Positions 2,053 through 39,129 of a stretch of DNA of 39,129 nucleotides are shown in pieces. The stretch spans positions 1-39,129 of the IMG/VR virus record IMGVR_UViG_3300037188_000033; one strand, 5' to 3'. Numbering within the stretch: position 1 is the stretch's first letter; each line of letters starts with the position of its first letter. This DNA comes from a virus. Lineage: Duplodnaviria > Caudoviricetes. The notes beneath the pieces are model-generated. The model did not search any database. It worked only from the letters and a program-made list of their open reading frames with translations, and was not told the origin of the DNA. The position numbers were made by a program, and so were the translations under genes.

Positions 2053-3303
2053 TTAGAGAGGGAAAATTAATGCCATGCCGTATTCAGGTACTAGCGTACT
2101 ACCCCAAATTGCGTCATGAATCATACCCATTTGGTTTTGCCCGAAGACCGAACCATAAGTAAGACGCATAGCAGCACCAGTTACATCATCAATAGCATTA
2201 GCCGTTGGGAACGGAATTTGTTCTGGCAAACGAGGCATTGCTAAGAATAATGGGTCACCTGCAATGATTAATCCCGAACGATGCGAAGGTAATACCGAAA
2301 CTGTCATGCCCACTTGAACTTGTGAACTTAAGTTTTGGTTATTAGTAGCTGCAGCTTGTAAAGGAGGATTAATGAATACAGTTACTTGGCTACCGCCGGT
2401 TGAAGCTGCAGCAGATATGGCTTGGAACTGTACAGGGTTAGAAGATATTTCATGCCCGATAAAGGTTCTATAACGAAGATTTGGAACACCTGCTACCCCG
2501 TCATTGAACTGGAACTTATCGTATTGAGCCACAGATAATGGGTCAGCAGCTGCATGCGTACCACTAAAAGTAATACTATCAATGGAGCCTTGAGGGCCAT
2601 TTTGTGTGAATGATACAACAGTCAATACAGATGCATTTTGACCTTCTGTACCTGCAGTATGAACTGGTAATAAATTGGATTCGTACCATCTAGAATTTTT
2701 AAAGTTACCTAATTCCCAGGAATTAGCAAGCTTGTTATTTCTATCTTGTGCAAATTGATTTAAACCAGAACCTACGATATTAGGGGTTACTGTATCTGAG
2801 ATGTAACACTTAGCTTCGCCCTTCGCTGCACCGTAGTTACGATACAAAGCTAAAGCATTAGCTAATTGAGTAAAGCTGTTAATTGGATTAACACCATCAC
2901 CAAAGAAACGGTAAGTATTGGTTAAGCAGTTGCGAGCAACACTATGTTCAATCTTGGCACCAATTTCTTCAACGCCAGATTTACCGAATTTCTTCATGTA
3001 ATCTTCAACGTTAAAAATGAATTGTTGTGCTGTGAATTCAACAGAAGCTGAGATTGCTTCGTTAACAACCAAGTTCTGTACGCGTTGATCAGCAGGCTGG
3101 AACTGAGCTACCAATGAACGGACAGTGGTCATACGGGGTGGTAAATCGAAAGAAACTGTATCACCTAAGTTACCAGTCATTTTTTCGAAGTCTTTAAATC
3201 TCTTGTTTGATGTTGAGATAAAAGGACAAATGTTTTGAAGGTAAGCAAGTTCCGACATTTGGTAGGTAATAACTTGCTGTAAAATATTATTTGGAATCGC
3301 CAT
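2053..3303 (-). CDS. Major capsid protein, P22 gp5 coat family
   Basis: 416 aa after the scaffold gene. Has GDTVSFDLPPR, a telokin/I-domain-like insertion (DKFQFNDGV...FQA) and a C-terminal D.IWG..LVPEY typical of P22-like coats. Confidence 0.88.
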   Translation of the reverse strand: MAIPNNILQQVITYQMSELAYLQNICPFISTSNKRFKDFEKMTGNLGDTVSFDLPPRMTTVRSLVAQFQPADQRVQNLVVNEAISASVEFTAQQFIFNVEDYMKKFGKSGVEEIGAKIEHSVARNCLTNTYRFFGDGVNPINSFTQLANALALYRNYGAAKGEAKCYISDTVTPNIVGSGLNQFAQDRNNKLANSWELGNFKNSRWYESNLLPVHTAGTEGQNASVLTVVSFTQNGPQGSIDSITFSGTHAAADPLSVAQYDKFQFNDGVAGVPNLRYRTFIGHEISSNPVQFQAISAAASTGGSQVTVFINPPLQAAATNNQNLSSQVQVGMTVSVLPSHRSGLIIAGDPLFLAMPRLPEQIPFPTANAIDDVTGAAMRLTYGSVFGQNQMGMIHDAIWGSTLVPEYGMALIFPL

Positions 3304-3363
3304 GAGTTAAATCCTCGCATATGAGTTTCATACCCAGCGAAGAGTCACGGCAATTCTAGGTGT

Positions 3364-4071
3364 TTAGCCTTTCAACCAAGGTTGATCTTTAAGGTCTTGC
3401 AAACCCATTTTACCGTTATCTACGCCGACTGTTGAAGATTTAAGTCTAGATAAAGGAGCGGGCGCACTAACGTTATTTTGTTTAGCAGCAATATTAGCTT
3501 CAATTGATTTCGATAATTTCTCTAGTTGTTTCTGCGCCATTCCTGGTGAGCGTTCAGCTAAAGAATTTATCTCTAACAATTTAGAAGGATTGTTGGCCAA
3601 CTCGTACATTATTTCAGCCGTGTTGGGCATTCCTTCAGCAAGTAATGCAGCATTGGGAAATTCATGAGCCTTAAAGTCACCCATTACTTCGTTATAGTCA
3701 TCGAATATTTCTGAGCCCTTTGACATTTTTAAATGAAAAGAATCAGCTCTTGACTTTAACTCACGTTCATGTGTTTCTTTCTCTAAAGCATCACGATGGG
3801 TTTGCAAATCATTCATGAACTTGTCATAGACACGTTGTTCTATGCCGTCTATATCTACGGCCGGAGCTCCACCTTGCGTCATAGATTGACCTTGGGTTTC
3901 TGCCCGAACTCTTTCAAGCTCTTCACGATGTTTTGATTCCATCTCACGCCGTACGCGGTCTGCGACACCGGCCTTTTCCCTTTTAACAACTTCATTCACC
4001 TGGCTTTGCGTCAATGATTTCTCACTTGGCTGCCCTGGTGCTGTAGCTAATGCAACTTCTTCATCTTCCAT
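3364..4071 (-). CDS. Scaffolding protein
   Basis: Acidic, helical 235 aa upstream of coat, with AEIMYELANNP and a C-terminal APAPLSRLKS typical of P22-like scaffolds. Confidence 0.8.
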   Translation of the reverse strand: MEDEEVALATAPGQPSEKSLTQSQVNEVVKREKAGVADRVRREMESKHREELERVRAETQGQSMTQGGAPAVDIDGIEQRVYDKFMNDLQTHRDALEKETHERELKSRADSFHLKMSKGSEIFDDYNEVMGDFKAHEFPNAALLAEGMPNTAEIMYELANNPSKLLEINSLAERSPGMAQKQLEKLSKSIEANIAAKQNNVSAPAPLSRLKSSTVGVDNGKMGLQDLKDQPWLKG

Positions 4072-4245
4072 AAATCCACGATCTCCCCGTGACGGTATTC
4101 CCTCATACGCTGAGTGGCGGCCAATTTCCCCTAATGGCGAGGTTAAACCTAGCTAAATAAATAGCTAGTAATTTAAGCTTAGTAGGGGTTGGTAAATTTG
4201 CAAATTATGTTATTATTTAAAACATTTTCAAAAAGAGTAGTAGAA

Positions 4246-4470
4246 ATGAATAAAATAGAAAAGATATATATTAGTGAAAAAGAGGCTGCGCATAGATATT
4301 GTTTATCGGTCCACTGGTTTAGAAGAAAAAGGTGGTTTGGCAACGGTCCAGAATACAGTAAGGTTCAAGGCGGAAAGATTCTTTATAATATAGAAGCAAC
4401 CGACAAATGGTTTGAAAGCTTTAAAACTAAAAGCACTTCAATTAGTCCACAGATTGCGCACCAATTATAA
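4246..4470 (+). CDS. Excisionase/AlpA-like winged-HTH DNA-binding protein
   Basis: YISEKEAAHRYCLSVHWFRRKRWFGNGPEYSK..GKILY....DKW pattern; ATG 4246 preferred over the TTG at 4189. Confidence 0.75.
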   Translation: MNKIEKIYISEKEAAHRYCLSVHWFRRKRWFGNGPEYSKVQGGKILYNIEATDKWFESFKTKSTSISPQIAHQL

Positions 4471-4602
4471 ATCCTGTTATTATTCGGTCCAAGCAGTCTG
4501 TTTGAGACAAACTTTCTGGATTTGCGGTTCTTGTTAATCTAATTGAATCGTCTCATTCGGATTGCCCATGCAGCTCGTTAGTCGAGAACTTTGTGCGAAA
4601 TT

Positions 4603-4899
4603 TTAGCTTCGGGCTGCATCTAACTTATTTAATCCCTTTCTTCTTACCAATACCCATGAATTTGCAAATTCTACTGATTCGGCATCAATATTTGACTTGG
4701 CATCATGAGCAGTATCTCTTATCAAATCAGCTAATTGCATAGCTTCTTCCGGTGTTAATATAAAATCATTTAGCTTAAAATCTTCAGCAATTTCAATTTT
4801 AACCTGTCCTAATAATGTATTTTGCATTTGTATCCAATAATCGGGTTCATCTTTAATATATATAGAACGTCTTGTGGTAATAAAGCTTCTATCAACCAT
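4603..4899 (-). CDS. Hypothetical protein
   Basis: 98 aa ORF coupled (TAATG) to the upstream gene; LTPEEAMQLADLI motif. Confidence 0.65.
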   Translation of the reverse strand: MVDRSFITTRRSIYIKDEPDYWIQMQNTLLGQVKIEIAEDFKLNDFILTPEEAMQLADLIRDTAHDAKSNIDAESVEFANSWVLVRRKGLNKLDAARS

Positions 4900-5546
4900 T
4901 ATTTAGTCCCCTTTTTCTTACCTTTGCTCAATATTCGATTAGCCTTAGCATCAATCTTCTTCTTTAGGCCACCAGATAGTTTGCCTTTCTTGGCTTCTTC
5001 AGAAGCTCTAGCTTTTGCGTTAGCTGCGTGACTTTTGTCAGGCATAGGATATTTGCGAGCCTTAGGCTCACCAAATTCTGATGCTGGGATTTTGCTGCGT
5101 GTCTTTGCGGTTAATTTAGCCATTTGTTGGGTCTCCATGAGTTGATTGCGGATAAAATTTAATGAATCTTGCAAATGTATAATACTTTTATTCAATTCAT
5201 TCAACTGAGATTGATGATCATTCTTGAAATCAACTATCATTTGATATCTACTTGTTTCCCTTGTCCTAATATTTTCCAAATCATGCTTAATATCCTTAGA
5301 TTTATGGAAAAGTTGTTCTATTTTATATCCTTTGTGGACTAGATTTTCATTTAGTTCCTTAATTACACTATCATTTTTCTCGAATAAACAATTAAATTTC
5401 GTAAATTCACCTAGAAACTCATTCTTTACAGAAAAATAATCTAGGAATCCTAATAATACTTTAGCAAGTCCAGATTGAGGTTCATTAGGATTATCAGCAT
5501 AAGCCTTGATTAAAAGTTTCCCCTGTTTAAATTCATTGTCAGTCAT
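4899..5546 (-). CDS. Coiled-coil protein in frame with a small basic protein (probable internal start at 5123)
   Basis: 215 aa ORF; the last 74 aa (MAKLTAKTRSKIP...KYPMPDKSHAANAKARA) have their own GGAG RBS. Confidence 0.65.
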   Translation of the reverse strand: MTDNEFKQGKLLIKAYADNPNEPQSGLAKVLLGFLDYFSVKNEFLGEFTKFNCLFEKNDSVIKELNENLVHKGYKIEQLFHKSKDIKHDLENIRTRETSRYQMIVDFKNDHQSQLNELNKSIIHLQDSLNFIRNQLMETQQMAKLTAKTRSKIPASEFGEPKARKYPMPDKSHAANAKARASEEAKKGKLSGGLKKKIDAKANRILSKGKKKGTK

Positions 5547-5767
5547 TATTTCCCCTCCTTTAGTTTGTGAAGCTTCAATTCTAATTCAATTTCTTCCATC
5601 ATGCCAAGTTCCTTGGCTAATGCATAATATGGCGGCAAAGGTCTAATACGTGGATTCAAGAGGAAAGCCCCTCGAACTACAGCTTTCTTCATATCATCAG
5701 TATAGCCTTGAATGTCTTTGGCTAAACGAAGGCGCATTTCATCAAGTTCCTTCGTTGTGTAAATCAT
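5546..5767 (-). CDS. Hypothetical protein
   Basis: ATG 5767 overlaps the upstream stop (TAATG). Confidence 0.6.
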   Translation of the reverse strand: MIYTTKELDEMRLRLAKDIQGYTDDMKKAVVRGAFLLNPRIRPLPPYYALAKELGMMEEIELELKLHKLKEGK

Positions 5768-5877
5768 TACCAAAACTTAATTACAAAATGTAAAATAATA
5801 TAAATACTTATCGCCCAAATACTAAGAACAACCGCCATAACCGTACCTTTCAATACATCTTCAAGTTTGGTTGTCAT
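5767..5877 (-). CDS. Small single-TM protein (36 aa)
   Basis: MTTKLEDVLKGTVMAVVLSIWAISIYIILHFVIKFW*, with GGAG RBS; fills the gap between coupled genes. Not in the ORF track. Confidence 0.55.
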   Translation of the reverse strand: MTTKLEDVLKGTVMAVVLSIWAISIYIILHFVIKFW

Positions 5878-6064
5878 TTTCAACTTGCTCCTTTATGTTA
5901 TTACGTAAAAATTCTAATTTACTAATGACTATTTCCAACGTTCCTTCTTCTTTCATTTTATAAGTGCCGAACAATTTCCCATCATAATAAATAAGCATTT
6001 GAGGTATTTGTAGAACTGCATGAAAAATAAAGCGATAGGTTAGAAGTGTGCGGTCAAACTTCAT
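5861..6064 (-). CDS. Hypothetical protein
   Basis: 67 aa ORF coupled (ATGA) to the portal stop. Confidence 0.55.
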   Translation of the reverse strand: MKFDRTLLTYRFIFHAVLQIPQMLIYYDGKLFGTYKMKEEGTLEIVISKLEFLRNNIKEQVENDNQT

Positions 6065-8163
6065 TCAGCTCCCCTTCTATTCTCGTGCAACTGTTTAGTG
6101 AAGCTAATAGCTGTCTCAACCGCAGATCGACTATTCTCCGCATCAACCTTCTCTTGGTCAATGGCGAGTTTAACATTACCTTGTTCCAATTTACCCATAA
6201 CTTCCATGAACTTAATATCCAATGCTTGTTTCTCATTGGCCACTTTAGCAGATTGAATAGCTAAATCGCCTTCAGTCTTATTGGCTAACTGTTCGACCTT
6301 AGCCATTTCAATTTCCTTCAATGTTTCCATCTGCATCTGTTCAGGTGAAGGTTGTTGCGCAGCTTGCTCCTGCTTCTCTTGCTGTTGCTTCATGAATATC
6401 ATAGCTTGCGCTTTAAGATGCTCAATACCCCTAATATCCATGTTATCGAGGATAGTTTCAAGACCCATCGATTGAATAAATTCAGCAAATGCCGGTGATG
6501 CCTGAGTCATACGGATAATTTGCTCGATGGCAACTTGTTTCTGAATACCCGAACTAACACTGGCTTCAACCTTAATCTGGAAACTGTTAGGATTGTATTT
6601 CAAATCAATACTATTGGGATCATCTGGGTGATTAATAACTTGGTAGGAGCGCTTGCCATCTTTTCCCTTGATTGGAAGACTCCTAGGGGTAACGTAGTAT
6701 TTCGGAATCAAGTCTACTACGATTTGAGCAATTCTATTGATACCCTTTATATATCCCTTGAGGTACGGAATAGCGGCTGCATTAGATTGGAGGGCACCTT
6801 GCTGGATTGCAACCCCGGAGATCTGTTTGTCGTTAGTGCTCAAAATAGAATCGTATGTTCCTAGAATGCTTTGAATCATTCGATTGGTACCATTGAATGT
6901 ATTCTCGACGATAGGTGGCGTTGGAGTTCTTTGAATCTCACGAGGCGGTGGTAAAGGCTGTTCTGGATTGTCTTTGTAGAATGCATTGTAAACTAGAGTT
7001 GAGGCTTGCTGAACATTCTTGTAAGCATCTTCATAGCCTTCTGGTATACCCTCTAACGGCACCATAATCTTATGCATTACCATATTTTCTATTTCAGCGG
7101 CTACAGTTTGACCGGCAAAGTTAATCAGTTGTTGAGCGCCTTTGGCATGCATTACGAATGGGCGACATACTTGCATTGATGCGTTTCCAACAGATTCCTT
7201 TATAATCACGCTATTACCATCAATAAATACAAGTGGTAAATATTTGAAGTTTGTCTTCTGATGCGACAATATCTTGTTTTCACAGACTAAATAACGTTCA
7301 ATAGTTTCGATTACACTCTCTCTTTCCTGTATAATAATCGGCGCTTGTTCAATGAATCCCTGGTCACTCCATAGCTTCATAAAGTCTTCATAATGTTTCT
7401 TAACAAGAACATGTCCATTTGAAAGCTTAACAATCTTCTCTTTCTTACGAACTTTACAATAATAATCGGCTATTAATATGACTTCTTGTTGTTGAGATAA
7501 ATAACTCCAATTAAAATCGCCCACGCTACTGCTACGTGTAAATTGCATTTCATCTGCCATTCCCTTCCCGAACTCGGCCTCGAATTCATCTTTTGTTTTA
7601 GGGATGCACATGAAGCAATAGCCACCGTCTCCTTTATGGGATTCACGAGCCATAGGGTCAAAGCCAGTTAATGTCGGGTCAAAAGCTCGTTCAATTCTAA
7701 TATTCTGCTCGAATGACATCTCATTAATATAATCGGTGAAGACACCGGCGACTGACCATCCACCGCCCAGTAAATCTGAATATACATTGTATTCAAAGCC
7801 ATCATTCGCAGCATCGAAAAATAGTTCTTTAAGATGGGCAATGACAGCATCTAATTGGGCTAGAAATTCTGGTGTTAGTTCTTCAACTCTAACGCCATCT
7901 GCGGCGCGACCAATAATATCTGGCTCTTGCTTTGCAAACTCGCCCCGAAGGCGGGATAAGACAGCTTCTAGGACGTTGAACTCAAGAGGTGGTTTGTTTA
8001 ATATGTCTAGCGTATCAAGGTCAGCACTTGATAAAGAGGTCTCAAATACAAACTTCATAAACATTTCATAGCGTTCAACATTGCGTCTGAAATAGGTATA
8101 GGATGCTTGAATGTTATCTTTTATTTCTTGTAATTTATCAACAGGTTTCTTTTTGGATGCCAT
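6061..8163 (-). CDS. Portal protein, P22 gp1-like
   Basis: 700 aa after terL, with PPLEFNVLE..LSRLRGE, FDP.A...(K)GDG.YCF, ISGVAIQ, IPKYY...R and a Q-rich coiled-coil C-terminal barrel. Confidence 0.9.
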   Translation of the reverse strand: MASKKKPVDKLQEIKDNIQASYTYFRRNVERYEMFMKFVFETSLSSADLDTLDILNKPPLEFNVLEAVLSRLRGEFAKQEPDIIGRAADGVRVEELTPEFLAQLDAVIAHLKELFFDAANDGFEYNVYSDLLGGGWSVAGVFTDYINEMSFEQNIRIERAFDPTLTGFDPMARESHKGDGGYCFMCIPKTKDEFEAEFGKGMADEMQFTRSSSVGDFNWSYLSQQQEVILIADYYCKVRKKEKIVKLSNGHVLVKKHYEDFMKLWSDQGFIEQAPIIIQERESVIETIERYLVCENKILSHQKTNFKYLPLVFIDGNSVIIKESVGNASMQVCRPFVMHAKGAQQLINFAGQTVAAEIENMVMHKIMVPLEGIPEGYEDAYKNVQQASTLVYNAFYKDNPEQPLPPPREIQRTPTPPIVENTFNGTNRMIQSILGTYDSILSTNDKQISGVAIQQGALQSNAAAIPYLKGYIKGINRIAQIVVDLIPKYYVTPRSLPIKGKDGKRSYQVINHPDDPNSIDLKYNPNSFQIKVEASVSSGIQKQVAIEQIIRMTQASPAFAEFIQSMGLETILDNMDIRGIEHLKAQAMIFMKQQQEKQEQAAQQPSPEQMQMETLKEIEMAKVEQLANKTEGDLAIQSAKVANEKQALDIKFMEVMGKLEQGNVKLAIDQEKVDAENSRSAVETAISFTKQLHENRRGAE

Positions 8164-8167
8164 TTCG

Positions 8168-9745
8168 TCACTTCCTTGCGCGTTTCATCGCTGAGAGTTT
8201 CAGGTTAAAATCATTAGCCAACGATTTAACTATAGGAGCTGATGATTTGCGTGGCAAATAGGCCGAGGCTGGAAGTGCAAAGGTTAGACATAGTGCGTCG
8301 GATTCATCAGGTGAACGCACTCCGCGGGCTCGCATCTCCTCTTTCTTTTCCATAATTAGCTGAGAATTAGAGCTATGTTTGTATTTAATGCCGCATAGGT
8401 CAGCATGAAGTGAATCGACATCGGGTATTTGGCAAGGAAGATTCATTAGCCATTCTTTAGTCTCTCCCCACATCTCGGCACGTTTGTTGGAATAGTACTT
8501 TTCATTGTAAGCACTCTCACCCGCATTAATGCCAACGACCAATGAGCCGATACGGTCGTTATGTGTGCCATATCCGAGCTCATAGAGCCTATCAATCAGA
8601 CCTGCTCCTAACCCACCAATATCAATCAGAACTTTATCTGGGTTGTGTTCACGAATTAACATCACTACAATACCCACAACCTCCATTACATCTTTTTTGG
8701 TGTAACTTTGAAGACCATAGGCAACGCGGCCTTGTCGGAAGATAATGGAGGTTCTATCGTCGCCGAATCGGGCCGGATCGACTCCCAATATTTTGGGACC
8801 ATATGGTTCGGCGACGGCCTTTCGAGCTCGCATAACAATAGCTGAATCAATGAATGTGTTTTCGCCCGTTAATTGGAATGCTTCATTGGCATTGCATGGA
8901 TATTCTTGGCAGAATGATTTCTCACCATCTTGGCCATTGACTGATAGGTCTACAATCTTATAACGACGCCAAGCGAGCTGACCCAATGTTAAGTTATATG
9001 TATCTTGTAAAGTGACTTCTATTTCTGTTAGAGCGAATTCTTCAGGAACATTACGTGTATATTCTTCTTGCCAGAACCAGGGAACGAAGATAGCAATGAA
9101 GTCGGATATTCCAGCTTCAGCTTTCTGCCACATCTGGTGAAAGTAATTGCCTACTCCGTTTGCGGTTGATTCAAGTATAATCTCCGTACCGTGTGCGTCA
9201 GGTACCGCTTGCATAATTCCTTTAGCATGCTCTGACGCGTTAGTCCAAAAAGCCACTTCCGAGCCGTGAAAGAGTTGAATGGTGGAAGAGCGGCCGACTG
9301 CTTTGTTTTCGGCGGTTCCAATCTTATATCCAGAATCAAGGGTTCCAAACATAAGTGCTTTAGAATTGTTCGTACTGACAGCTGGCCTGACGGTATCCGG
9401 GGTGTTTTCATAAAACCTCTGCGCCATCTCATATAGGTTGTTGGTAGCGTCACCCAAATGGGTTAGTATGAAGCATTGTATACCGAAGTGATGGGTAACT
9501 CTATGATAGAAGCGTCCACCTACGTATGTTGAGCATCCTTGTTGACGTCCTTTTAAAATTAATGCTCTTACTCGGCCAATCGAGCCTTTTTGCTCTTCAA
9601 GCTTGGTGTGTATATATGATTGGGCTCGGTTTAATTGAAATTGTTCGACTTGTCCAGCTTTTGTTCTAATCTTTAGGCATTTAGTAGCATAATGTTTGAA
9701 GTTGGTACGAAGTAGGTCTCTGATGCGCTTTTCGTCATCATTCAT
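8168..9745 (-). CDS. terL: Terminase large subunit
   Basis: Walker A ILKGRQQGCST, Walker B LFHGSEVAFW, ESTANG coupling motif, RNase H-like GVDPARFGDD and SPDESDAL. ATG 9745 preferred over the TTG at 9769. Confidence 0.95.
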   Translation of the reverse strand: MNDDEKRIRDLLRTNFKHYATKCLKIRTKAGQVEQFQLNRAQSYIHTKLEEQKGSIGRVRALILKGRQQGCSTYVGGRFYHRVTHHFGIQCFILTHLGDATNNLYEMAQRFYENTPDTVRPAVSTNNSKALMFGTLDSGYKIGTAENKAVGRSSTIQLFHGSEVAFWTNASEHAKGIMQAVPDAHGTEIILESTANGVGNYFHQMWQKAEAGISDFIAIFVPWFWQEEYTRNVPEEFALTEIEVTLQDTYNLTLGQLAWRRYKIVDLSVNGQDGEKSFCQEYPCNANEAFQLTGENTFIDSAIVMRARKAVAEPYGPKILGVDPARFGDDRTSIIFRQGRVAYGLQSYTKKDVMEVVGIVVMLIREHNPDKVLIDIGGLGAGLIDRLYELGYGTHNDRIGSLVVGINAGESAYNEKYYSNKRAEMWGETKEWLMNLPCQIPDVDSLHADLCGIKYKHSSNSQLIMEKKEEMRARGVRSPDESDALCLTFALPASAYLPRKSSAPIVKSLANDFNLKLSAMKRARK

Positions 9746-12384: not shown

Positions 12385-12467
12385 GTTAGCTTCTATTCCA
12401 AATAATTGCTTTTCATTAGCCTACTACCTATACGTTAAATATGTTTAAAAACGTAGAGGGTCCCATT

Positions 12468-13157
12468 ATGAAACGCATATTACTTTTAACTTTATTTGCA
12501 TTATTGAGTACTTCTTTAAGAGCTGAAGATGTTGTTGAACCATTTCATCCATATGCGGGTGTTAATATCACATCTCGCCATATGTCGTATAAGGAAGGTT
12601 TTGGCGATAATCTATTCGCTTCCCAAACTGCCCAACATCATGCTTTTGTCGGTTTAAGAATGAATCAAAATTTTGGTGTTGAAATCGGTTACAATACTAC
12701 TCCCACTAGAGTTCGCATTACCCATCTGAGTGCTGGCGATGCAGGTTTAGGTATTCCAGTTCAGAATGCCCCTGAAAAGCATATGGCCAAACATAAGATT
12801 TCTAGTTGGCATCTAGGTCCAATGTGGTTTATGCCAATTACTGAGTATTTAGAATGGGTTGGCATGACTGGTGTTTCATTTACAAAGGTCAAGCATGACC
12901 ATGTCATCTTGGCTGATAATTTGGGGCCTTTAGACTTCGCCTCAAGTACTCGTCGATTCAGAAAGAATCAAGCCGTGCTAAAACTCTCTGGTGGTCTACA
13001 ATTACTTACCGATAATGGTGGAATTAGGGCAATGGCTCACTATGAGAACACTCGTTCTATTGGCACTCTGCGGCCTTCTGATAATGCGATTAGCAATAAA
13101 AGACTTACCTTTCGAGACACAATCTCGTTTGGGCTTGGCGCATTTGCTACATATTAG
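12468..13157 (+). CDS. Outer-membrane beta-barrel protein (OmpA-like TM domain)
   Basis: Signal peptide MKRILLLTLFALLSTSLRA, PYAG, FVGLRMNQNFGVEIGY, GGLQ and C-terminal beta-signal FGLGAFATY. Confidence 0.8.
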   Translation: MKRILLLTLFALLSTSLRAEDVVEPFHPYAGVNITSRHMSYKEGFGDNLFASQTAQHHAFVGLRMNQNFGVEIGYNTTPTRVRITHLSAGDAGLGIPVQNAPEKHMAKHKISSWHLGPMWFMPITEYLEWVGMTGVSFTKVKHDHVILADNLGPLDFASSTRRFRKNQAVLKLSGGLQLLTDNGGIRAMAHYENTRSIGTLRPSDNAISNKRLTFRDTISFGLGAFATY

Positions 13158-14364: not shown

Positions 14365-14584
14365 CTTTATGTCTTCTCCTAATATCTTTTAATATATCTT
14401 CAAATGAAGTAATATAAATTTCATCTTCATTAACTATAAATAGTTCAATTAAGTTACAAATAAATGCAAACGTCAAAACATTAGTTTCACCAAGCAACAA
14501 TTTATTCCAAACCTCATTAGCCATTTGCTCGGCTTGTGTTTCACATTCAATCAATTGTTTTATGGATAAATCTGATATTTTCAT
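14357..14584 (-). CDS. Small helical protein (putative paralogue family)
   Basis: 75 aa coupled (ATGA) to recT; KLLLG-ETNVLTFAFICNLI. Confidence 0.6.
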   Translation of the reverse strand: MKISDLSIKQLIECETQAEQMANEVWNKLLLGETNVLTFAFICNLIELFIVNEDEIYITSFEDILKDIRRRHKDG

Positions 14585-15471
14585 TCTTCAACCTCAAAGA
14601 ACTCTTTAGCTAATGGCGTCATCTCTGTTTCATGAAGTATCTTGTTGGTATCTAATTCTTCAGCTTTCTTACGCTTAGATATCTTCATCTTTAGCAATTT
14701 GCATACTCCTTCCCATTTAGATTCTGGCATCATTTCTAGGCAATCTATCTTAAGATAATGAAGCAAGTCATCTTCCTGTGAATCAATCTTTGTATCTTCA
14801 ATTAACGCCTTGAGAATACTTAATTCATCATCGGATATCAATAAGTCTTCAGAGATTATTTTACCCTCAAAAGTGTTGCCCGTTGTCTTACTGTAATCTT
14901 TACGCCTAACTTTATCTTTGGGCATATCTTCAGCTTCTTCGCATGTAATGATACCCCGCAATAAATCTGGATATGCATCTCTCAAGCAAAAGCCTCTAGC
15001 TCTCATTTGAAGCATTCGACGCGGATATTGTGCCCATGGTCCCTGTTTGCCCCAAAGACCTGCAAGCTTTGCATCGGCTTCAGAGAATGATTGCTCAAAT
15101 TCTGGTTCAAACTTACGCTTAACTCTGCATATGTAAGTCTTAGAGTCTTTTAGATATTCTTCCTTAATGTATTCAAAGTCAGGAGATTGACGAGCTACCG
15201 CTAACATTGCATCGCCCCAAAGAGATGGCCTGCCATTTATGACTGCAATATTTTGAAGAGCTTGTAATGGCTTAAGCCCAAGCTCTTGACCCATCTGCAT
15301 GGCTACAACGACATCCCCTGGCTTGCCAACCATTCCCTTTGGGCAGAATGACGACTTAGCGATGAATTCAGCGCATCGTATGGCAGAGTCAAGTGTATCT
15401 ACCTGCATGAATCCAGGATTGCTGGGCATGATGCGACGGTCTGGTCTGATTTCTGTTTCTTCAGCGCTCAT
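14581..15471 (-). CDS. recT: RecT/Redbeta-family single-strand annealing protein
   Basis: GKPGDVVVAMQMGQELGLKPLQALQNIAVINGRPSLWGD...AKLAGLWGKQGPWAQYPRRML..RA..FCLRDAYPD.L.G. Confidence 0.85.
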   Translation of the reverse strand: MSAEETEIRPDRRIMPSNPGFMQVDTLDSAIRCAEFIAKSSFCPKGMVGKPGDVVVAMQMGQELGLKPLQALQNIAVINGRPSLWGDAMLAVARQSPDFEYIKEEYLKDSKTYICRVKRKFEPEFEQSFSEADAKLAGLWGKQGPWAQYPRRMLQMRARGFCLRDAYPDLLRGIITCEEAEDMPKDKVRRKDYSKTTGNTFEGKIISEDLLISDDELSILKALIEDTKIDSQEDDLLHYLKIDCLEMMPESKWEGVCKLLKMKISKRKKAEELDTNKILHETEMTPLAKEFFEVEE

Positions 15472-16307
15472 TAAGTTGACTCCTCTTCTTTACTAAATGC
15501 CCAAGCTGGCAGACTAATCTTCTGTACGTCTTCAGTATATCCAGGCCATTCATTATTCTTTATACATTCGGCATAAAGGATGGCTGAATCTAGATATTCT
15601 TCGCGACCTTGTGATAAAGACATTTCATCTAGTTCAAAGCAAGCTGTCAAATATGGAGCCTTATCTTCAACCACAAAGAATGCGAACTTACGTTGCTTGC
15701 CATCTACAGTTTGAAGACCATCTACTTGCATAGCTGCTTGTCTGTGATATCCAAAGTTATAAATTGATTTACTGAAATTGGAAATAGAGCTTGTTGTTTT
15801 TATTTCCATGACTATTTGGTCATTGAACACATCAGGACGTGCACGCAATGGAGTTTCAAATATACCGCCATTCCAGAATATTGATTGTTCAACTTTAGCT
15901 TCTTTTCTAAACTTACTCCAAATGGAATGTGCCTTAATAGATTCAGACATAAGCTTAATATCTTTCCATTTATCTGCACGTAATATTTCACGACCATTTG
16001 CTTCGGCTTCAGCTTTTGCATAAATCTCTTTGCCAATCTTAGTCGTAAGATTCACCTCTTCTTCCATACAATAGAATGTACTTTCAAACTTTTCTGGTTC
16101 TAATACGAGCATATGCACAGCTCTACCCATCTTATATTTCTCAGCTTCTTTTTTGGCTTCTTTTGGGTCGATCTCACGCTCTTCTATATATTCGTAATGA
16201 TAACGCTTTGGACAATCACGTAATAGTGTAATACCACTAGAACTAATACCTGCAGATGCGTGATATTCATTGATGTCGATATCGCTGTATATGCCCGGTT
16301 GTCTCAT
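15471..16307 (-). CDS. PD-(D/E)XK exonuclease (RecE/Exo VIII C-terminal, DUF3799-like)
   Basis: YH....ISSSG, GRAVH..VLEP, RARPD...EIKT, YHRQAA, FFVVED.APY, WPGY; adjacent to recT. Confidence 0.85.
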   Translation of the reverse strand: MRQPGIYSDIDINEYHASAGISSSGITLLRDCPKRYHYEYIEEREIDPKEAKKEAEKYKMGRAVHMLVLEPEKFESTFYCMEEEVNLTTKIGKEIYAKAEAEANGREILRADKWKDIKLMSESIKAHSIWSKFRKEAKVEQSIFWNGGIFETPLRARPDVFNDQIVMEIKTTSSISNFSKSIYNFGYHRQAAMQVDGLQTVDGKQRKFAFFVVEDKAPYLTACFELDEMSLSQGREEYLDSAILYAECIKNNEWPGYTEDVQKISLPAWAFSKEEEST

Positions 16308-17908: not shown

Positions 17909-18730
17909 CTATGCTGTCTCGCTTCTCGTATTTCTAACTAAGTCTTTCCATTCTTGAGGTCTATTTTGGGACTTAGGTATTAATTTATCTGCTTCCATCC
18001 GTTTGGTTGTCTCTTCGACGGTATTGTATGGCATGCAATAGGCCACAGAGGGCCCTTTTTTTGTTGGTAGGGCGATCATACGCTTCAAGACGCCTCGTAT
18101 ATAGGCTGGAAGATTTCCCGGCCTCTCCGGCTTCTCAGTTGAGATTTTAATAGCCTCCCGACATTTGTCTGAACCATATTGTTCAAATAAGGCCCTGGCA
18201 TCTTGACGATTGAATCCTTTTTTCATTAAAAAATCAAATTCAACAACAACCTTATCATCCCTTTCCATCTCGATATCTCCTGTTGTTTGTTTTTTAAGAT
18301 CTGTTTTATTTGTATTGTTATTATTTTTGTTATTTCTATATGGTCGCATAATGCGACTGTCGCAAAATGCGACTGTCGCTTTTTGTAACTTTCGGGAATC
18401 AATGTTATCCACACATACTTTGACTGCAAAATTTTTATGAATTGAAAATTTTAATCTTGAGCCATAAAGAGATCCCCCTCTCAAAAGTTCCATATATCCT
18501 TCTTTTCTCAATTCACCACAGACTTTGTCCCATTTACGCTTACCCCACCCGAAGTGTTCTTTTATTTGAGAAGGTCTTGGAGTCCAATTTGGCGGTAAAC
18601 TATGTAAATAACCACCTAATGCACGAGATGAATCAGAAAGATTTTTATCTTGAAAAAATTTGACTGGAAAAGTTTTATATAATTCTGGTGAGTTATCTAA
18701 TTCAATTATTGAGTTTAAATCCTGAGCCAT
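17909..18730 (-). CDS. Replication initiator (N-terminal HTH, lambda O-like organisation)
   Basis: LSDSSRALGGYLHSLPPNW.......HFG.G......V..ELRKEGY HTH, an N/K-rich linker and C-terminal NLPAYIRGVL. ATG 18730 has an AAGGAA RBS, and the gene contains iterons. Confidence 0.75.
   Translation of the reverse strand: MAQDLNSIIELDNSPELYKTFPVKFFQDKNLSDSSRALGGYLHSLPPNWTPRPSQIKEHFGWGKRKWDKVCGELRKEGYMELLRGGSLYGSRLKFSIHKNFAVKVCVDNIDSRKLQKATVAFCDSRIMRPYRNNKNNNNTNKTDLKKQTTGDIEMERDDKVVVEFDFLMKKGFNRQDARALFEQYGSDKCREAIKISTEKPERPGNLPAYIRGVLKRMIALPTKKGPSVAYCMPYNTVEETTKRMEADKLIPKSQNRPQEWKDLVRNTRSETA
18280..18413. other. Replication origin: AT-rich tract, iterons and DnaA box
   Basis: GCGACTGTCGC at 18353 and 18369, with degenerate copies at 18337 and 18385 (16-bp period); TTATCCACA at 18405-18413; A/T tract at about 18280-18340. 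Confidence 0.7.
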
Positions 18731-18759
18731 AAACTTATTCCTTTGTTGCCAAATAAATA

Positions 18760-18788
18760 TTGACAAACAACAGGAACCTTCATAAAAT
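18760..18788 (+). promoter_or_regulatory. sigma70 promoter antisense to the rep leader
   Basis: TTGACA(18760)-N17-TAAAAT(18783). Confidence 0.7.
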
Positions 18789-18794
18789 GCTCGG

Positions 18795-18882
18795 GTCTGT
18801 GGAGCATTGACAGAATTTTTGAAGGTTCCTGTCATTCGAAATGAAAAAAAGCCCCGATCTAATAAGTCGGGGCTTTTGTTTT
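18795..18882 (+). ncRNA. Putative antisense copy-control RNA (about 85 nt)
   Basis: Bounded by a consensus promoter and the AAAAGCCCCGA/TCGGGGCTTTT terminator; complementary to the rep leader. Ends are estimated. Confidence 0.5.
18844..18882. terminator. Bidirectional Rho-independent terminator
   Basis: AAAAAAAGCCCCGA-tctaataag-TCGGGGCTTTTGTTTT gives a U-tract on both strands. Confidence 0.75.
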
Positions 18883-19519: not shown

Positions 19520-19522
19520 ATA

Positions 19523-19598
19523 TGGCTCCCCAAGACGGGCTCGAACCGCCGACCTAGTGATTAACAGTCACTTGCTCTACCGGCTGAGCTATTGGGGA
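19523..19598 (-). tRNA. tRNA-Asn(GTT)
   Basis: Canonical 76-nt cloverleaf: acceptor TCCCCAA/TTGGGGA, anticodon arm AGTGA-CTGTTAA-TCACT, G73-CCA. Confidence 0.95.
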
Positions 19599-19938: not shown

Positions 19939-20202
19939 TTACATCACTTCCCCAAGAGACCGCATGAGATGTGACTTGTCGACCTTTAAGCCGTGCTTAA
20001 TTAAAGCCTTAATTACATGAGTATTTGTCATAACTTTTTGGCTATAATTGTTCATCTCTTTTCGTATCTTATTTAAATTGCTTTTATCGATTGGCCCTAA
20101 TCGGAATGAACACATGAACCATTCCTTTTTAGGTTCTTTGAGGTTCAGTTTCTCTACTCTAGGCTTAACACTAAACTCCTTAAGTTGTTTCTTTTTTGCC
20201 AT
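19939..20202 (-). CDS. Small DNA-binding partner of ParA (type Ib ParB/ParG-like, probable RHH)
   Basis: Overlaps the parA 3' end; basic N-tail then MCSFRLGPIDKSNLNKI....TNTHVIKALI. Confidence 0.6.
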   Translation of the reverse strand: MAKKKQLKEFSVKPRVEKLNLKEPKKEWFMCSFRLGPIDKSNLNKIRKEMNNYSQKVMTNTHVIKALIKHGLKVDKSHLMRSLGEVM

Positions 20203-20989
20203 TTATCTTCTCCAATATTTCCGATGTTAGTTGATTGAAATCTTTTATAGCTGGACTATCCGCATCGAAAGTGTAAATACTTTCTTCATTTATTTGGGCT
20301 TTGTTAATCGCCTCAACTTTCTTGATAATGGTTTTTAATACCATATTTCTATAAGTTGAATGTTCTAATGCATGCTCAATACTATTGTTAGTTATGGAGG
20401 TTCTCACATCAAAACAATTACGAAGAATATGATATTTCATTATGGGAGAATCCAGGAAATCATCGTCTTTAATTTCTTTTATCAAATTAACTAAATCTCT
20501 AATTCCTTCCAAAGCAAATCGGCCATAAGTTATGGGTATTATGATATGGGTTGCCGCATAAATAGCATTTGAAAGCAAAACGCCGAAGGTAGGAGGGCAG
20601 TCTATTATTACGAAATCAAATAGGTTTCTAACTTTTTTTAGGCAGTTAAATAATATTTTCTCTCGATGAAATCTAGTTATTGCATGCTCAGCAGCTATAG
20701 CCAATCCTATATTGGAACTGATAATTGAAAGATTTTTAATAGGTACCTTAAATGGGTCAGTAGCCGGGTGAATTATATCCATTATGTTAGCATTTTTAAA
20801 GTTAAAAATCTGTTCAATTCCAAGACAAGAAGCTGGGCTTTTATTATAAATAAGTGAAGAATTTCCTTGCGGATCTAAATCTATTAAAAGAACATTATTG
20901 TTCTCTAAAGCCAATGAATACGCCAGGTTTGTGGAGGTAGTTGTTTTACCAACTCCGCCTTTTTGTGATGCGAAAGATAATATTTCCAT
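20180..20989 (-). CDS. parA: ParA/Soj family partition ATPase
   Basis: SQKGGVGKTT, VLLIDLDPQGN, FDFVIIDCPP; no N-terminal HTH (type Ib). Confidence 0.92.
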   Translation of the reverse strand: MEILSFASQKGGVGKTTTSTNLAYSLALENNNVLLIDLDPQGNSSLIYNKSPASCLGIEQIFNFKNANIMDIIHPATDPFKVPIKNLSIISSNIGLAIAAEHAITRFHREKILFNCLKKVRNLFDFVIIDCPPTFGVLLSNAIYAATHIIIPITYGRFALEGIRDLVNLIKEIKDDDFLDSPIMKYHILRNCFDVRTSITNNSIEHALEHSTYRNMVLKTIIKKVEAINKAQINEESIYTFDADSPAIKDFNQLTSEILEKINGKKETT

Positions 20990-21301: not shown

Positions 21302-21304
21302 AGG

Positions 21305-21513: not shown

Positions 21514-21804
21514 ATGCCATTCCTGATTAATTTCTTTAAAGATTGCGATAGGGAGAATAGTATGAACGATTATATAGATAGGTTTTCAGTTGGACCACCA
21601 GGATTTCAAAGTTTAACTGTCAAAATCAATAATGAAAATATAGGTCTTAATATGCTATTATGCGTTACTTTTAGTAGTATATTTGCTATTAGTGTACATT
21701 ATGCATTTTGTGGAAATGCTAATTTAAGAATGTATGCTGGAATAATAGCAGGATCTTGCATTGGGAATATTTTAGCTGAAATATATAAAGCGTTGAAAAA
21801 ATGA
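21514..21804 (+). CDS. Small membrane protein (2 TM)
   Basis: Two hydrophobic segments; start uncertain. Confidence 0.5.
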   Translation: MPFLINFFKDCDRENSMNDYIDRFSVGPPGFQSLTVKINNENIGLNMLLCVTFSSIFAISVHYAFCGNANLRMYAGIIAGSCIGNILAEIYKALKK

Positions 21805-21851
21805 AATTCTTAAAATTTATAGTTGAAAAAATGAAATTCTTAAAATTTATA
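21792..21851. repeat. 30-bp tandem duplication spanning a gene start
   Basis: GTTGAAAAAATGAAATTCTTAAAATTTATA occurs twice exactly. Confidence 0.85.
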
Positions 21852-22067
21852 ATTGAAAGTGGAATAACTTCTTTATTTTGTTGTCTATGTGGTATCTATT
21901 CGGCTATTTATGCATTTAATGATCATAGTTATTGGTGTCTTCTCCATGCTTTCTGCGGTGGTGCTTGTCTGATTATTGCGATTTATTTCTTTAGTCGTTA
22001 CAGAAGCAATAGGGAATTTGATCGTATATGTGAAGAATTGGATAGGAAGCATAATGAGACATCCTGA
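21801..22067 (+). CDS. Cys-rich small membrane protein (2 TM)
   Basis: Two TM segments and a charged C-tail (holin-like topology). Confidence 0.55.
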   Translation: MKFLKFIVEKMKFLKFIIESGITSLFCCLCGIYSAIYAFNDHSYWCLLHAFCGGACLIIAIYFFSRYRSNREFDRICEELDRKHNETS

Positions 22068-23151: not shown

Positions 23152-23511
23152 TTAACAAATTTCCTTTAATGTAACCCATATTTCACCTGGCCCTAAAGTA
23201 CGTGGTTGTCGTTCAACATGGATAATATCTATCTGAGAATCATTTAGAAAATATCCTGCAAACTCCATGGCATCGAAAGTTACTTTGAGGATGTTATCCA
23301 AATCGCGCTTTCGTCTGTCTGGTGGATGCGCCATTATTGAAACTGACAATCTACCTTTAAGGGGAATTCGACCACCCAAATTCTCTATATAAGATAATTG
23401 TCTAACAGTTCTCTTATATAAATGGGCTTCTTTTGAAACTATAGTGCGGCCCCTCACATTCCGCCAATAACGATTGGCGGAAGGAGGCCAAGGCAATTCA
23501 ACATCAATCAT
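23152..23511 (-). CDS. rusA: Holliday junction resolvase RusA
   Basis: LPWPPSANRYWR...PPDRRKRDLDNILK...D......NDSQID. Confidence 0.92.
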   Translation of the reverse strand: MIDVELPWPPSANRYWRNVRGRTIVSKEAHLYKRTVRQLSYIENLGGRIPLKGRLSVSIMAHPPDRRKRDLDNILKVTFDAMEFAGYFLNDSQIDIIHVERQPRTLGPGEIWVTLKEIC

Positions 23512-25712: not shown

Positions 25713-25934
25713 GTGAAACTTATGAGTGAACCCAAAACCAAGCTCAAACCATTAGATTTAACTTTCAAAGATAAGGATGCGTCCCAATCTAAAGCTGAAA
25801 AGAGATTAAACGAGAAACAATTAAGAATTATGGAAACCAGAATGAAAAAACAAATGGAAGCACTTTATGATAGCGAATCTAGTGATGACGATGCAGACAA
25901 AGAAGTGCAGAGCATATTGAAGGTAAAGTTATGA
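25713..25934 (+). CDS. Hypothetical protein
   Basis: Charged ORF coupled (ATGA) to the next gene; the start may be ATG 25722. Confidence 0.55.
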   Translation: MKLMSEPKTKLKPLDLTFKDKDASQSKAEKRLNEKQLRIMETRMKKQMEALYDSESSDDDADKEVQSILKVKL

Positions 25935-26134
25935 CAATTACAAACCCAATGACATCTATCGCAACTGAAGAAGCTTTATTGGATATTGTTAAAAGCATGC
26001 AACGAAGGATAGGCGAATTGGAGCTGAGAATAGAAGTTTTAGAACAAGCTTCCTTCAAACATGAAATGACATTAATTCAGCATAAGAAAGCAGCCGAGAA
26101 TTTTATAGAGCGATATAATATAGTCGATAAATAA
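25931..26134 (+). CDS. Coiled-coil hypothetical protein
   Basis: 67 aa; IGELELRIEVLEQ heptads. Confidence 0.55.
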   Translation: MTITNPMTSIATEEALLDIVKSMQRRIGELELRIEVLEQASFKHEMTLIQHKKAAENFIERYNIVDK

Positions 26135-26161
26135 GTTCGCATAATGTATGTTATGTTAAAT
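26134..26161 (+). other. dif-like XerC/XerD recombination site
   Basis: AGTTCGCATAA-TGTATG-TTATGTTAAAT versus E. coli dif GGTGCGCATAA-TGTATA-TTATGTTAAAT; the XerD arm is identical, 25/28 overall; intergenic. Confidence 0.88.
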
Positions 26162-26179
26162 TGTATGGAGAAATAGAAA

Positions 26180-26353
26180 ATGTTTGAAATATTATTTGAT
26201 ATCTATAAAGTAGTATGTTTCACGTGCTTAACTTTGGTATTAGTTAGTTCAACTATAGCTTTCATGCATTATCTTTTGAAGGATTTATTTAGAAAGCAAC
26301 CCTTGAAAGATATTTACGACTACCGCAAGAAACACTCCACCAATTCCGATTGA
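26180..26353 (+). CDS. Small single-TM protein (57 aa)
   Basis: MFEILFDIYKVVCFTCLTLVLVSSTIAFMHY...; GGAG RBS; its 3' end overlaps the convergent gene. Confidence 0.4.
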   Translation: MFEILFDIYKVVCFTCLTLVLVSSTIAFMHYLLKDLFRKQPLKDIYDYRKKHSTNSD

Positions 26354-26551
26354 TAAGTATTTGTAACTTAAATCCATTTTTAAAATTATTTTATCCATTG
26401 CATTAGCAAAGTCATTTCTAATGTCTTTAATATCTTGTTTAGTTACTTGAATAGAGTCTGAAATAGCTCTGGCTTGAGCATGCGCTTGTTCTTTTGAAAT
26501 TCCAGCAGCTAATAAATTATCATATATTTCTAATGCATCTTTATGGCTCAT
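26285..26551 (-). CDS. DUF1640/CCDC90-like membrane-anchored coiled-coil protein
   Basis: MSHKDALEIYDNLLAAGISKEQA...VTKQDI...C-terminal TM; GAGGTG RBS and an upstream extended -10 TGATATAAT. Confidence 0.75.
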   Translation of the reverse strand: MSHKDALEIYDNLLAAGISKEQAHAQARAISDSIQVTKQDIKDIRNDFANAMDKIILKMDLSYKYLSIGIGGVFLAVVVNIFQGLLSK

Positions 26552-37409: not shown

Positions 37410-39056
37410 CTAATACACTTCTACCCAGCCATTGTTACAAACAAATCGGCTTAAGCCCCAGAATCTAAGCTTGATGGTGAGACTATTAGCAGAGCCTAGA
37501 TTTTCCCAATTGATAATGTTTTGACGAATGGCTACGGGATTTAAGTTACGAGCAACTGTATTGCTCCAGGTTATGCCACCATCTCGAGATATACTCATAT
37601 CGACTCGAGGTTGGTATGGTGGAGGTAAATCACCTGCACCCACACCGGCACCTGAATCTTCATCAGCCATTGGAACCCCAAATTCAGTATAGATAACATC
37701 ATCTGGTGGCGCGAATGCGTCCTCGGTAATTAGTAAATCTTCATTATTTAAGAGGGAAACACCGCTAATCAACGTATCTTGACCTTGTTCTATGATGAAC
37801 ACGAAAGTATTAGCTCGGAATTGGCTACTATCAGCAGTCATGACGGTATCACATACTCTTATTCTCTGAATCTCAAGATTCATGGTTGGATCTTGTGCTA
37901 CAGTTGGTAAATTTTCGTTATAAGTAGTGTAATTACTGGAACTTTGGTAAATTGAGCCATTATTCAGACTGATAAAGTAAGTTTTACCGTTAAAGTAAAC
38001 ATATTCACGTGCGGGATGATAGTTTAAAGCCGCATCACTTAGATTAAAGAATGTTTGGGATGTAAAATCATATAAATAGGTGACATTATCAACTGGGTTG
38101 TAGAATGTTAACTGATAAAATAAATGACCATCTTGTCTAAATAGTGTCGCTGTAGATTGGTCTGGGAATTGAATTTGAGATAACTCGTAATCTATGCCAT
38201 CGCTTGAAATTGGTGTAATACTTTCTCCAGCAAAAACCATAATCACGGGCGCATTACTTTCGTTTATACCAAGCCAGACCACATATTGGTCAGACTTTGC
38301 AATAGTTGAAATGGATGCGACGCCATAATCGATATTGATATTGCTATTGCGTCTATAATTTTGAAGACCGCCTACTTGAAGCCAGATTTCGCAAACTGAA
38401 GAGCCAAGCACAAGAACATTATTACCGCGCCCTGGTAACCGTACAACAGCTAAGGCAAAGTCTGGCTTTGTTTGTAATGCAAATTGTCCGCCTGGGGCCG
38501 TGACCTGTACAATTGTGGTAGGAGTATCAAACTGATAGACATACCATGCCGCGCCATTCGAGGTCATATTAGCATTGCCGAATAAGAAAAAAGTATTATG
38601 ATATTCGACATAATTCGGAATTAAACTGCCCGTTATAGCTTGAATTGTAATGACTGGGCCAACTTGATAGTTATAAATATATGCATTAACGCCGTCTACA
38701 ATACAAATCTGAGCATTTAGATTTTCATCTATAAATACTTCACCGGTCTCTGTTGCAAGGTTTCCAACAGTAGTAATAACTAAACTTGGAGAGATAGAAA
38801 ATACAGTACTACCTACAATTGCAATCATTATATTGCCGCGAATACTGACAAATAGGCCGCGACCTGTCGCGCCAGGTCCTGTTCCACCACTTGCAAATAA
38901 TTGTAATACTCGTTGATATCCAGCAGTATTGATTAACCATTTATCGGAGACAAACATATTAATTGTGCGCGCAGATGATATCTTTTGATAGCGCCCGAAG
39001 GTACTGCCACCTACTATGTTAACTGGTTCTCGTCGGTCGCTCCGCGTTTTACGCAT
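37410..39056 (-). CDS. Tail hub / packaged-DNA stabilisation protein, P22 gp10-like
   Basis: 548 aa; TINMF, GRGLF, QDGHLFYQLTF..DNVTYLYD, ISRDGGITWSN. Confidence 0.85.
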   Translation of the reverse strand: MRKTRSDRREPVNIVGGSTFGRYQKISSARTINMFVSDKWLINTAGYQRVLQLFASGGTGPGATGRGLFVSIRGNIMIAIVGSTVFSISPSLVITTVGNLATETGEVFIDENLNAQICIVDGVNAYIYNYQVGPVITIQAITGSLIPNYVEYHNTFFLFGNANMTSNGAAWYVYQFDTPTTIVQVTAPGGQFALQTKPDFALAVVRLPGRGNNVLVLGSSVCEIWLQVGGLQNYRRNSNINIDYGVASISTIAKSDQYVVWLGINESNAPVIMVFAGESITPISSDGIDYELSQIQFPDQSTATLFRQDGHLFYQLTFYNPVDNVTYLYDFTSQTFFNLSDAALNYHPAREYVYFNGKTYFISLNNGSIYQSSSNYTTYNENLPTVAQDPTMNLEIQRIRVCDTVMTADSSQFRANTFVFIIEQGQDTLISGVSLLNNEDLLITEDAFAPPDDVIYTEFGVPMADEDSGAGVGAGDLPPPYQPRVDMSISRDGGITWSNTVARNLNPVAIRQNIINWENLGSANSLTIKLRFWGLSRFVCNNGWVEVY

Positions 39057-39129
39057 ACGATTTACATCCTATTACCAAGGGGTGGTCCAACCACGGCCCC
39101 AGTTGACCTGTCCGTAATTTATTGCATAA
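38999..39129. repeat. Terminal direct repeat (circular-contig overlap), copy 2
   Basis: Matches 1-131. Confidence 0.95.

Follow-up and report, generated by a model that had tools for sequence, protein, structure and literature searches.

What is a near-canonical dif site, the target of the host recombinases XerC and XerD, doing in a tailed phage in which no site-specific recombinase was matched? The window analysed here (39,129 nucleotides, the whole of one virus record) ends in a 131-nt repeat of its own start, with one mismatch, giving a circle of 38,998 bp, and is a complete, P22-like tailed phage genome of 39 kb. Of 63 ORFs scanned, those with matches include the P22 portal, TerL, capsid, scaffold and head closure proteins, RecE/RecT, RusA, a methyltransferase, a rep-like protein and ParA. 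P22-type phages package DNA by a headful mechanism. The features used in the argument are as follows.

2053..9745, minus strand: P22-like head and packaging genes (capsid 2053-3303, scaffold, portal 6061-8163, TerL 8168-9745), from family matches
4207..4470, plus strand: small AlpA/excisionase-like HTH protein (PHROG 66, E 3.5e-4)
12441..13157, plus strand: outer-membrane beta-barrel (OMP) gene, the host marker, from a family match and homologue searches
14581..15471 and 15471..16307, minus strand: RecT and RecE-like exonuclease, from family matches
17909..18835, minus strand: replication initiator-like ORF (PHROG 186, E 7e-9) with internal repeats near 18340-18380
19939..20202, minus strand: small partner ORF overlapping parA, matching the ORF that follows parA on a Megaera plasmid at 27% over 70 aa (E 5e-5 in a pairwise comparison)
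20180..20989, minus strand: plasmid-type ParA partition ATPase, about 42% to the ParA of Megaera and Rickettsia felis plasmids
23152..23511, minus strand: RusA Holliday-junction resolvase, from family matches
25722-25934 and 25931-26134, plus strand: two small ORFs of no family on the XerC side, the second ending on the first base of the site
26134..26144, plus strand: predicted XerC-binding arm of the dif mimic, AGTTCGCATAA, 9/11 to E. coli dif
26145..26150, plus strand: 6-bp overlap region (spacer) TGTATG, in which the G at 26150 is the XerD-proximal change relative to the candidate host TGTATA
26151..26161, plus strand: predicted XerD-binding arm, TTATGTTAAAT, identical to E. coli and candidate host dif
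26180..26353, plus strand: small ORF without a family match on the XerD side
38999..39129, plus strand: 131-nt repeat of bases 1-131, indicating a circular assembly

A sequence-only reading of this DNA had placed the site at 26134-26161, with 25 of 28 bases in common with E. coli dif and a perfect XerD arm, and on both counts it was exact. Relative to the chromosomal dif of E. coli K-12 as taken from a record (GGTGCGCATAA TGTATA TTATGTTAAAT), for which almost every one of 5426 genomes gives one match per chromosome, the changes lie at positions 1, 4 and 17, the last being the only one in the spacer. The site was also rightly called intergenic, apart from its first base, which is shared with the TAA stop of ORF 25931-26134; the remainder is non-coding and the next ORF begins at 26180. 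The resemblance to dif is far beyond chance: none of 100 dinucleotide shuffles gave a match with three or fewer mismatches, and a Markov model predicts the 18-base arm core about 1e-5 times per window. With its 11-6-11 layout, XerC arm core and XerD arm, the site would by its sequence be classed as an XerC/XerD-type site. It is present in a single copy, the runner-up place in the window having seven arm mismatches (the opposite-strand reading of the site being set aside). The exact 28-mer was found in no other IMG/VR record, and a 26-mer with G at the spacer end occurred twice in JGI metagenomes, both times in GC-rich bacterial DNA. Junction-type patterns searched from either side of the site gave three and three matches, none of them a relative, and a promoter scan around the site returned nothing usefully above noise. 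KOPS, which provide a test of polarity, occur once in the genome.

A six-frame search of the window for a tyrosine recombinase (PF00589), a serine resolvase (PF00239) or DUF3653/PF12375, the XafT domain (PMC6744903), gave no match, nor was a site-specific recombinase matched among the 63 ORFs, as is the case for IMEX. Complete virion genes, a partition locus and the absence of an integrase also give the genome the make-up of a phage-plasmid. ORF 19939..20202 is likely, from its sequence, to encode the centromere-binding protein, and a search of IMG/VR with ParA returned distant ParAs only (37% at most); no relative of ORF 25722-25934 was found in the same database. The rep-like ORF is intact and is not divided by the dif-like site. 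No CI-like repressor was matched among the scanned ORFs, the regulators that did match being two ribbon-helix-helix and two AlpA-like proteins; homologues of the AlpA-like ORF 4207..4470 lie before the scaffold gene in relatives. A tRNA scan found two tRNAs in all, neither near the dif-like site: a tRNA-Asn(GTT) and an unusual tRNA-Ile with an AAT anticodon, at 19440-19598 on the minus strand, between the partition locus and rep. Five short ORFs resemble, by eye, coiled-coil genes of the CCDC90/DUF1640 type (12010-12291, 21104-21502, 26285-26551, 32700-32951), and their homologues in one genome (G003) match PF07798 weakly; the family is common in intracellular bacteria. An exact 30-bp tandem duplication occupies 21792-21851, at the start of ORF 21801-22067.

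The OMP gene was used to look for the host. Searched singly against 401 Gammaproteobacteria, the protein (33% identity as a host marker) matched three at E<=1e-8, two of them from the order of the best match, a genome with five copies (G214). With a profile of 25 homologues, 33 of the 41 genomes in this order proved to have 3-14 copies, the eight without a copy being 0.3-0.4 Mb in size. By sequence, then, the gene points to this one gammaproteobacterial order, which is probably UBA6186/'Ca. Azoamicales': its Azoamicaceae endosymbionts have genomes of 284-374 kb (PMC11549363), a family that the 0.3-0.4 Mb members would fit. One member (G068) carries a relative of the capsid gene. XerD scored above the curated cut-off in four of five tested members, each with a second Xer-like gene, and an XerL-like gene is present in another. 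Together with dif sites of up to 26/28 (see below), the OMP marker and XerD make a gammaproteobacterium with XerD the most likely host, in agreement with the proteobacterial host proposed earlier. The orders of two other genomes (G077 and G057) were dropped as hosts, having no E. coli-type dif near that of the phage, and Legionella proper was excluded because it uses XerL. A word-index search with the OMP matched only itself, and the named members of the ParA and OMP clusters yielded almost no taxonomy. The phage has one copy of a family that is expanded 3- to 14-fold in the candidate order, possibly a receptor mimic or a surface conversion gene.

A dif pattern was found in 12 of the 41 genomes of the candidate order (15 sites), and 11 of these sites are clear dif. 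The best three share 26 of 28 bases with the phage site, and the phage XerC arm is 10/11 to three dif sites from the order. Nine of the 11 have a TGTATA spacer, so that position 17 is the sole spacer difference against nine candidate host sites, for a host placed at the level of order. It had been suggested that the change in the central hexamer might matter, and this gains weight here: the G adjoins the XerD cleavage point, and all 11 clear sites have an A in its place. In the class-wide sample, which takes in four unpublished genomes that enter no other result here (G119, G221, G376 and G388), a dif pattern allowing G at position 17 matched 183 of 401 genomes, and no G was seen at that position among the 150 of 187 matches listed. 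A junction in V. cholerae has the spacer TGTATG, which implies that such a spacer is functional; TGTATG is thus natural in chromosomes elsewhere, and the dif of the true host could match the phage spacer fully.

Strand exchange requires base pairing beside the cut, and where homology is missing beside the XerD cut the XerD exchange is blocked; in dimer resolution at dif, XerD activated by FtsK acts first, whereas integration of VGJphi and CTXphi consists of one XerC exchange that is resolved by replication (PMC3442271, PMC5357621, PMC9226527). The G/A difference beside the XerD cut would thus leave XerC exchange with the host dif possible and XerD exchange not. Given the inferred host, the phage spacer agrees with dif on the XerC side and differs from it on the XerD side, the arrangement of VGJphi. 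On these grounds, with both arms matching a host-type dif and no recombinase detectable in the phage, we favour, tentatively and with somewhat less confidence than doubt, integration: the 28-bp site would be a VGJphi-type attachment site through which a plasmid-capable phage enters chromosomal dif by means of the host XerC and XerD. XerC and XerD would bind the phage site and pair it with the host dif, XerC would exchange the top strands, where the spacers agree (TGTAT), and the G/A difference would block XerD, leaving the junction to be resolved by replication. The prophage would then lie between one TGTATG and one TGTATA site, and its excision by FtsK-XerD would fail in spite of perfect arms. 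ParA and its partner would maintain the phage as a free circle, either before integration or after an excision led by XerC. The same sequence would permit recombination of the site with itself, and dimer resolution may be a side benefit.

By the logic of its sequence the site belongs with the VGJ-type IMEX, a membership that depends on the spacer comparison with the inferred host. Like VGJphi of Vibrio cholerae (PMC5357621, PMC3442271), the phage has one dsDNA dif-like site, a spacer match on the XerC side, a mismatch on the XerD side and no integrase; VGJphi, however, is small and filamentous and has four spacer differences, whereas the window phage is tailed, has a single difference and carries a partition locus. 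CTXphi-type elements use two inverted dif-like sites that fold in ssDNA, in contrast to the one site of this dsDNA phage. TLCphi and the gonococcal genetic island (GGI) are also dsDNA elements with a single dif mimic, but theirs has a degenerate XerD arm, to which TLC adds XafT (PMC6744903, PMC9226527); the window phage has a perfect XerD arm and no DUF3653 match, and is not of the TLCphi type. The GGI likewise encodes ParA/ParB, which serve DNA secretion there. In cer and psi the host XerCD also works on an episome; both have some 180-200 bp of accessory DNA that serves PepA together with ArgR or ArcA, and the spacer of cer is 8 bp long (PMC5357621). No such conserved accessory DNA is evident in the phage, the XerC side being an ORF that is swapped for unrelated DNA in a relative. 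Enterogokushoviruses and the dif-type double-jelly-roll (DJR) vibriophages, which are small and tailless unlike the window phage, have patchy, repeatedly gained dif motifs and occur both integrated and as circles, and the DJR phages exchange integrase-type for dif-type modules while keeping one virion backbone (PMC7062461, PMC12715192), an exchange also seen across the relatives of the window phage. In the literature searched, which covered few subscription papers, no report was found of a tailed phage or phage-plasmid using an XerC/XerD dif.

Capsid searches yielded 53 viral and 35 genome loci, from which 32 longer relatives (capsid 38-74%) were compared, 31 picked by capsid and one (G546) picked for having a dif. 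Among the 31, XerCD sites do not rise above the control level, with five two-mismatch matches against seven in reversed sequence; the two of these matches that were checked fall inside ORFs. A pattern search of 50 of the 53 viral records (the three shortest contigs omitted) gave three-mismatch matches only, in nine records, and the four contexts inspected were a recurring coding stretch or had no arm structure. Integrases were sought with Pfam among the non-structural ORFs of six genomes and of the L198 locus, and with three recombinases as tblastn queries in every relative. ParA is present in the four closest complete relatives (capsid 73-74%) and in G041, none of which has a Xer site or an integrase match, and it follows that partition in this lineage comes without a resolver. 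The four closest also have in common a palindrome whose 13-bp arms match perfectly around an AT-rich centre of 9 bp (L264:5825, L266:1563, L268:4026, L270:17679) and which is absent from the window; it was rejected as a Legionella dif and may be an operator or a recombination site. More distant relatives do have Xer sites. G546 (capsid 43%) has an intergenic XerCD-type GGTGCGCATAA TAAATA TTATGTTAAAT, and in G071, a free 35-kb circle in which neither ParA nor an integrase was matched, converging genes flank AAGTCTGATTA TTACAG TAACCAGACTT. The latter reads as an XerL-type site, the Legionella att core being AAGTCTGATTATTTTGATAATC (PMC5071653), and its spacer agrees with the host spacer on one side only. 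A palindrome in another relative (G055) may be a terminator and was left out of the Xer-site count.

One relative is integrated at a host XerL dif. A prophage of Legionella maceachernii (G062:C27:48219-89174; capsid 60%, portal 45% and RecT 46% to the window phage) is flanked by AAGTCTGATTA TTTTGA TAATCAGACCT and TATGCCGGTTA TTTTGA TAATCAGGCTT, sites 40,928 bp apart with a 16-bp direct repeat in common, and its phage genes reach both borders. A rep-like ORF spans the left site, in phase with an ORF inside the right site, as for repO of LME-1 (PMC12407071). The prophage has no ParA and has, mid-genome, an XerL-like recombinase gene that is 57% to the copy of the host. PMC12407071 does not mention the species in its main text; the prophage may already be in the supplements of the LME-1 papers. 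In a further relative, which encodes its own integrase, the insertion is at a tRNA (45-bp repeat, 38,020 bp), and the long contigs of two others (G072 and G056) showed neither an att repeat nor a Xer site. The XerL prophage, the tRNA-integrated relative and the XerCD and XerL sites of others together indicate a lineage that swaps lifestyle modules. Sites with XerL arms are present in 119 of the 151 genomes of the Legionellales sample, and many of these genomes have several (up to 11) with differing spacers, TTTTGA being the commonest spacer among the sites listed; by analogy, they look like a pdif-like population of mobile XerL sites.

The elements first listed as exploiting Xer were mostly filamentous phages and satellites, the GGI and plasmid sites, and a tailed precedent, LME-1, had been left out. 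LME-1 integrates at the dimer-resolution site of its host through XerL (PMC9765430, PMC12407071). It resembles the window phage as a short-tailed dsDNA phage with a dif mimic (PMC9765430, PMC12407071, PMC5071653), and the L. maceachernii relative shares its target and has the rep-like ORF across att. LME-1 is T7-like and 30 kb long and has a single recombinase, a shortened arm and a split repO, whereas the window phage is P22-like and 39 kb long, with an XerC/XerD-type site of two full arms, an intact rep and ParA.

Parts of the region occur in four metagenome runs, of which two (X2 and X4) leave the site uncovered. In the likely source run (X1) one 4,213-nt contig runs unbroken through the site at an even depth of 8.4, and neither a phage-host junction nor an integrated form was seen. 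In an independent study (run X3) a 302-nt contig (depth 25.6) matches 25812-25936, then has 153 other bases replacing the next ORF, and then matches 26130-26149 exactly before it ends. A related phage in X3 thus keeps the XerC arm and five spacer bases while the adjoining gene is replaced, which argues for selection on the arm and against accessory DNA of the cer/psi type. The contig stops at the base preceding G17, the point at which free (G) and integrated (A) forms would diverge, a weak hint from one contig, noticed post hoc. A second X3 contig is identical to the window over 26151-26303, from the XerD arm on, behind 10 unrelated bases; it fits no part of the integration model and is possibly an artefact. 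A look for reads that break at 26145-26150 had been proposed: the X1 contig is unbroken there, and the X3 contig ends at 26149. Homologous prophages flanked by dif hybrids, also proposed as a check, did not appear, as none of the 35 genome loci holds a relative flanked by XerCD dif sites, the nearest case being the one at an XerL dif. Conservation of the site in related phages fails for the close complete relatives and stands in part elsewhere, in the X3 phage and in the two kinds of Xer site found in distant relatives.

Dif-like arms occur in other phages too. We estimate that about 700 IMG/VR stretches hold the arm core CGCATAA-N6-TTATGTTAAAT (120 seen in 12 of 64 parts). Among 80 such loci with flanks (L144-L263), 22 have packaging genes like those of the window; their spacers are 2-5 changes from TGTATA, none being TGTATA or TATATA, and 19 of the sites lie 0.9-2.4 kb from TerL. 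The window site does not belong to this terminase-linked class (within about 2.5 kb of TerL, spacer 2-5 changes away), lying about 16 kb from TerL with one spacer change.

Several other accounts of the site have to be set against integration, of which dimer resolution is a real, if minority, possibility: the phage would persist as a low-copy circle partitioned by ParA, dimers made by RecA/RecET would be monomerised by the host XerCD, and G17 would mainly insulate the circle from FtsK/XerD fusion with the chromosome. The partition genes, which resemble rickettsial plasmid loci, and the lack of a CI-like repressor match suit a plasmid prophage and count against integration; so does the lack of a phage-host junction in the likely source run. 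Dimer resolution is further favoured by the missing integrase, by the circular assembly without a fork at the site in that run, although a circular assembly fits virion DNA as well as a plasmid, and by the four closest relatives, which likewise have ParA and no integrase match. Both arms are perfect, moreover, whereas those of the TLC, GGI and LME-1 attachment sites are weakened (PMC9226527, PMC9765430). Yet those same four relatives, and G041, partition without any Xer site or detected resolvase; accessory DNA of the cer/psi type is missing on the XerC side, which is coding and replaced in a relative, and there is one KOPS only, points that count for integration. The phage sites that look like self-recombination sites differ from TGTATA at 2-5 positions (22 of 22), and the one XerD-side change here would still allow XerC-first recombination with the host dif. 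Integration itself is weakened by a site that does not split rep, so that the switch of the LME-1 type is missing, by the integrated L. maceachernii relative, which uses another Xer system, has no ParA and encodes its own XerL-like recombinase, and by the lack of an XerCD-dif-flanked relative. Still, where the job of a Xer site is visible in the lineage, in that same relative, it is integration, which counts in its favour; it is this prophage and the host dif comparison that lead us to rank integration above dimer resolution.

That the site is a passenger, a dif copy that came in from a host terminus or a plasmid as part of a small cargo cassette and has no selected role, we consider unlikely. 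Around it, between tail genes, is a block of small genes that is AT-rich and variable and is lacking in close relatives; the site itself is missing from all 31 capsid-chosen relatives, the close ones included, and has only two changes from candidate host dif, all of which a passenger would explain. It would not explain why the X3 phage retains its part of the site exactly beside a replaced gene, why Xer sites of two systems recur at different places in relatives, or why the sole spacer change hits a mechanistically meaningful position. Least probable, to the point of being remote, is a use in the lytic cycle, with XerCD acting on incoming or replicating phage DNA in circularisation via terminal redundancy or in the unlinking of circles. 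The 19 viral loci with a site close to TerL speak for such a use, as do Vequintavirinae of five genera with E. coli-type arms and private spacers, one of them inside a 519-bp terminal repeat; the present site, however, is far from the terminase genes and has a host-like rather than private spacer, and RecET can circularise a redundant genome.

If integration through the host XerCD is correct, a 28-bp non-coding site would open a lysogenic route and name the host group, integrase-less tailed phages with partition genes could not be filed simply as plasmid-only or lytic, and the lineage, in which one virion backbone has Xer sites of two different host systems, would carry what is published for tailed phages, the one case of LME-1, over to the common XerC/XerD system. 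A broader proposal, which we advance as doubtful, is that in a P22-like lineage of protist-associated Gammaproteobacteria the dimer-resolution site is a swappable module, the choices being an XerCD or XerL mimic according to the host, a tRNA integrase, or ParA alone. This phage would join ParA to an XerCD mimic, whose one spacer change would let the phage switch between a plasmid prophage and an FtsK-proof chromosomal prophage without a recombinase of its own, and tailed phages, cultured lytic rV5-like ones among them, would draw on host Xer much more frequently than published work suggests. The same motif in cultured lytic coliphages would make the role of host Xer in tailed phages testable in E. 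coli K-12.

The rV5-like phages (Vequintavirinae) have a lytic lifestyle, and their dif-like sites were not found in print in the literature searched. Six cultured members from five genera, FV3, GAP31, Hena1, PVP-SE1, KpS8 and CR9, have non-coding E. coli-type dif arms (L368:2500-2527, L371-L375) around the private spacers TGGGTA, CGTGTA, GGTGTA and CGTGTT. The FV3 stretch is matched over most of its length by 120 phage records. The Hena1 site is the one within the 519-bp terminal repeat, a position that suggests Xer-aided circularisation.
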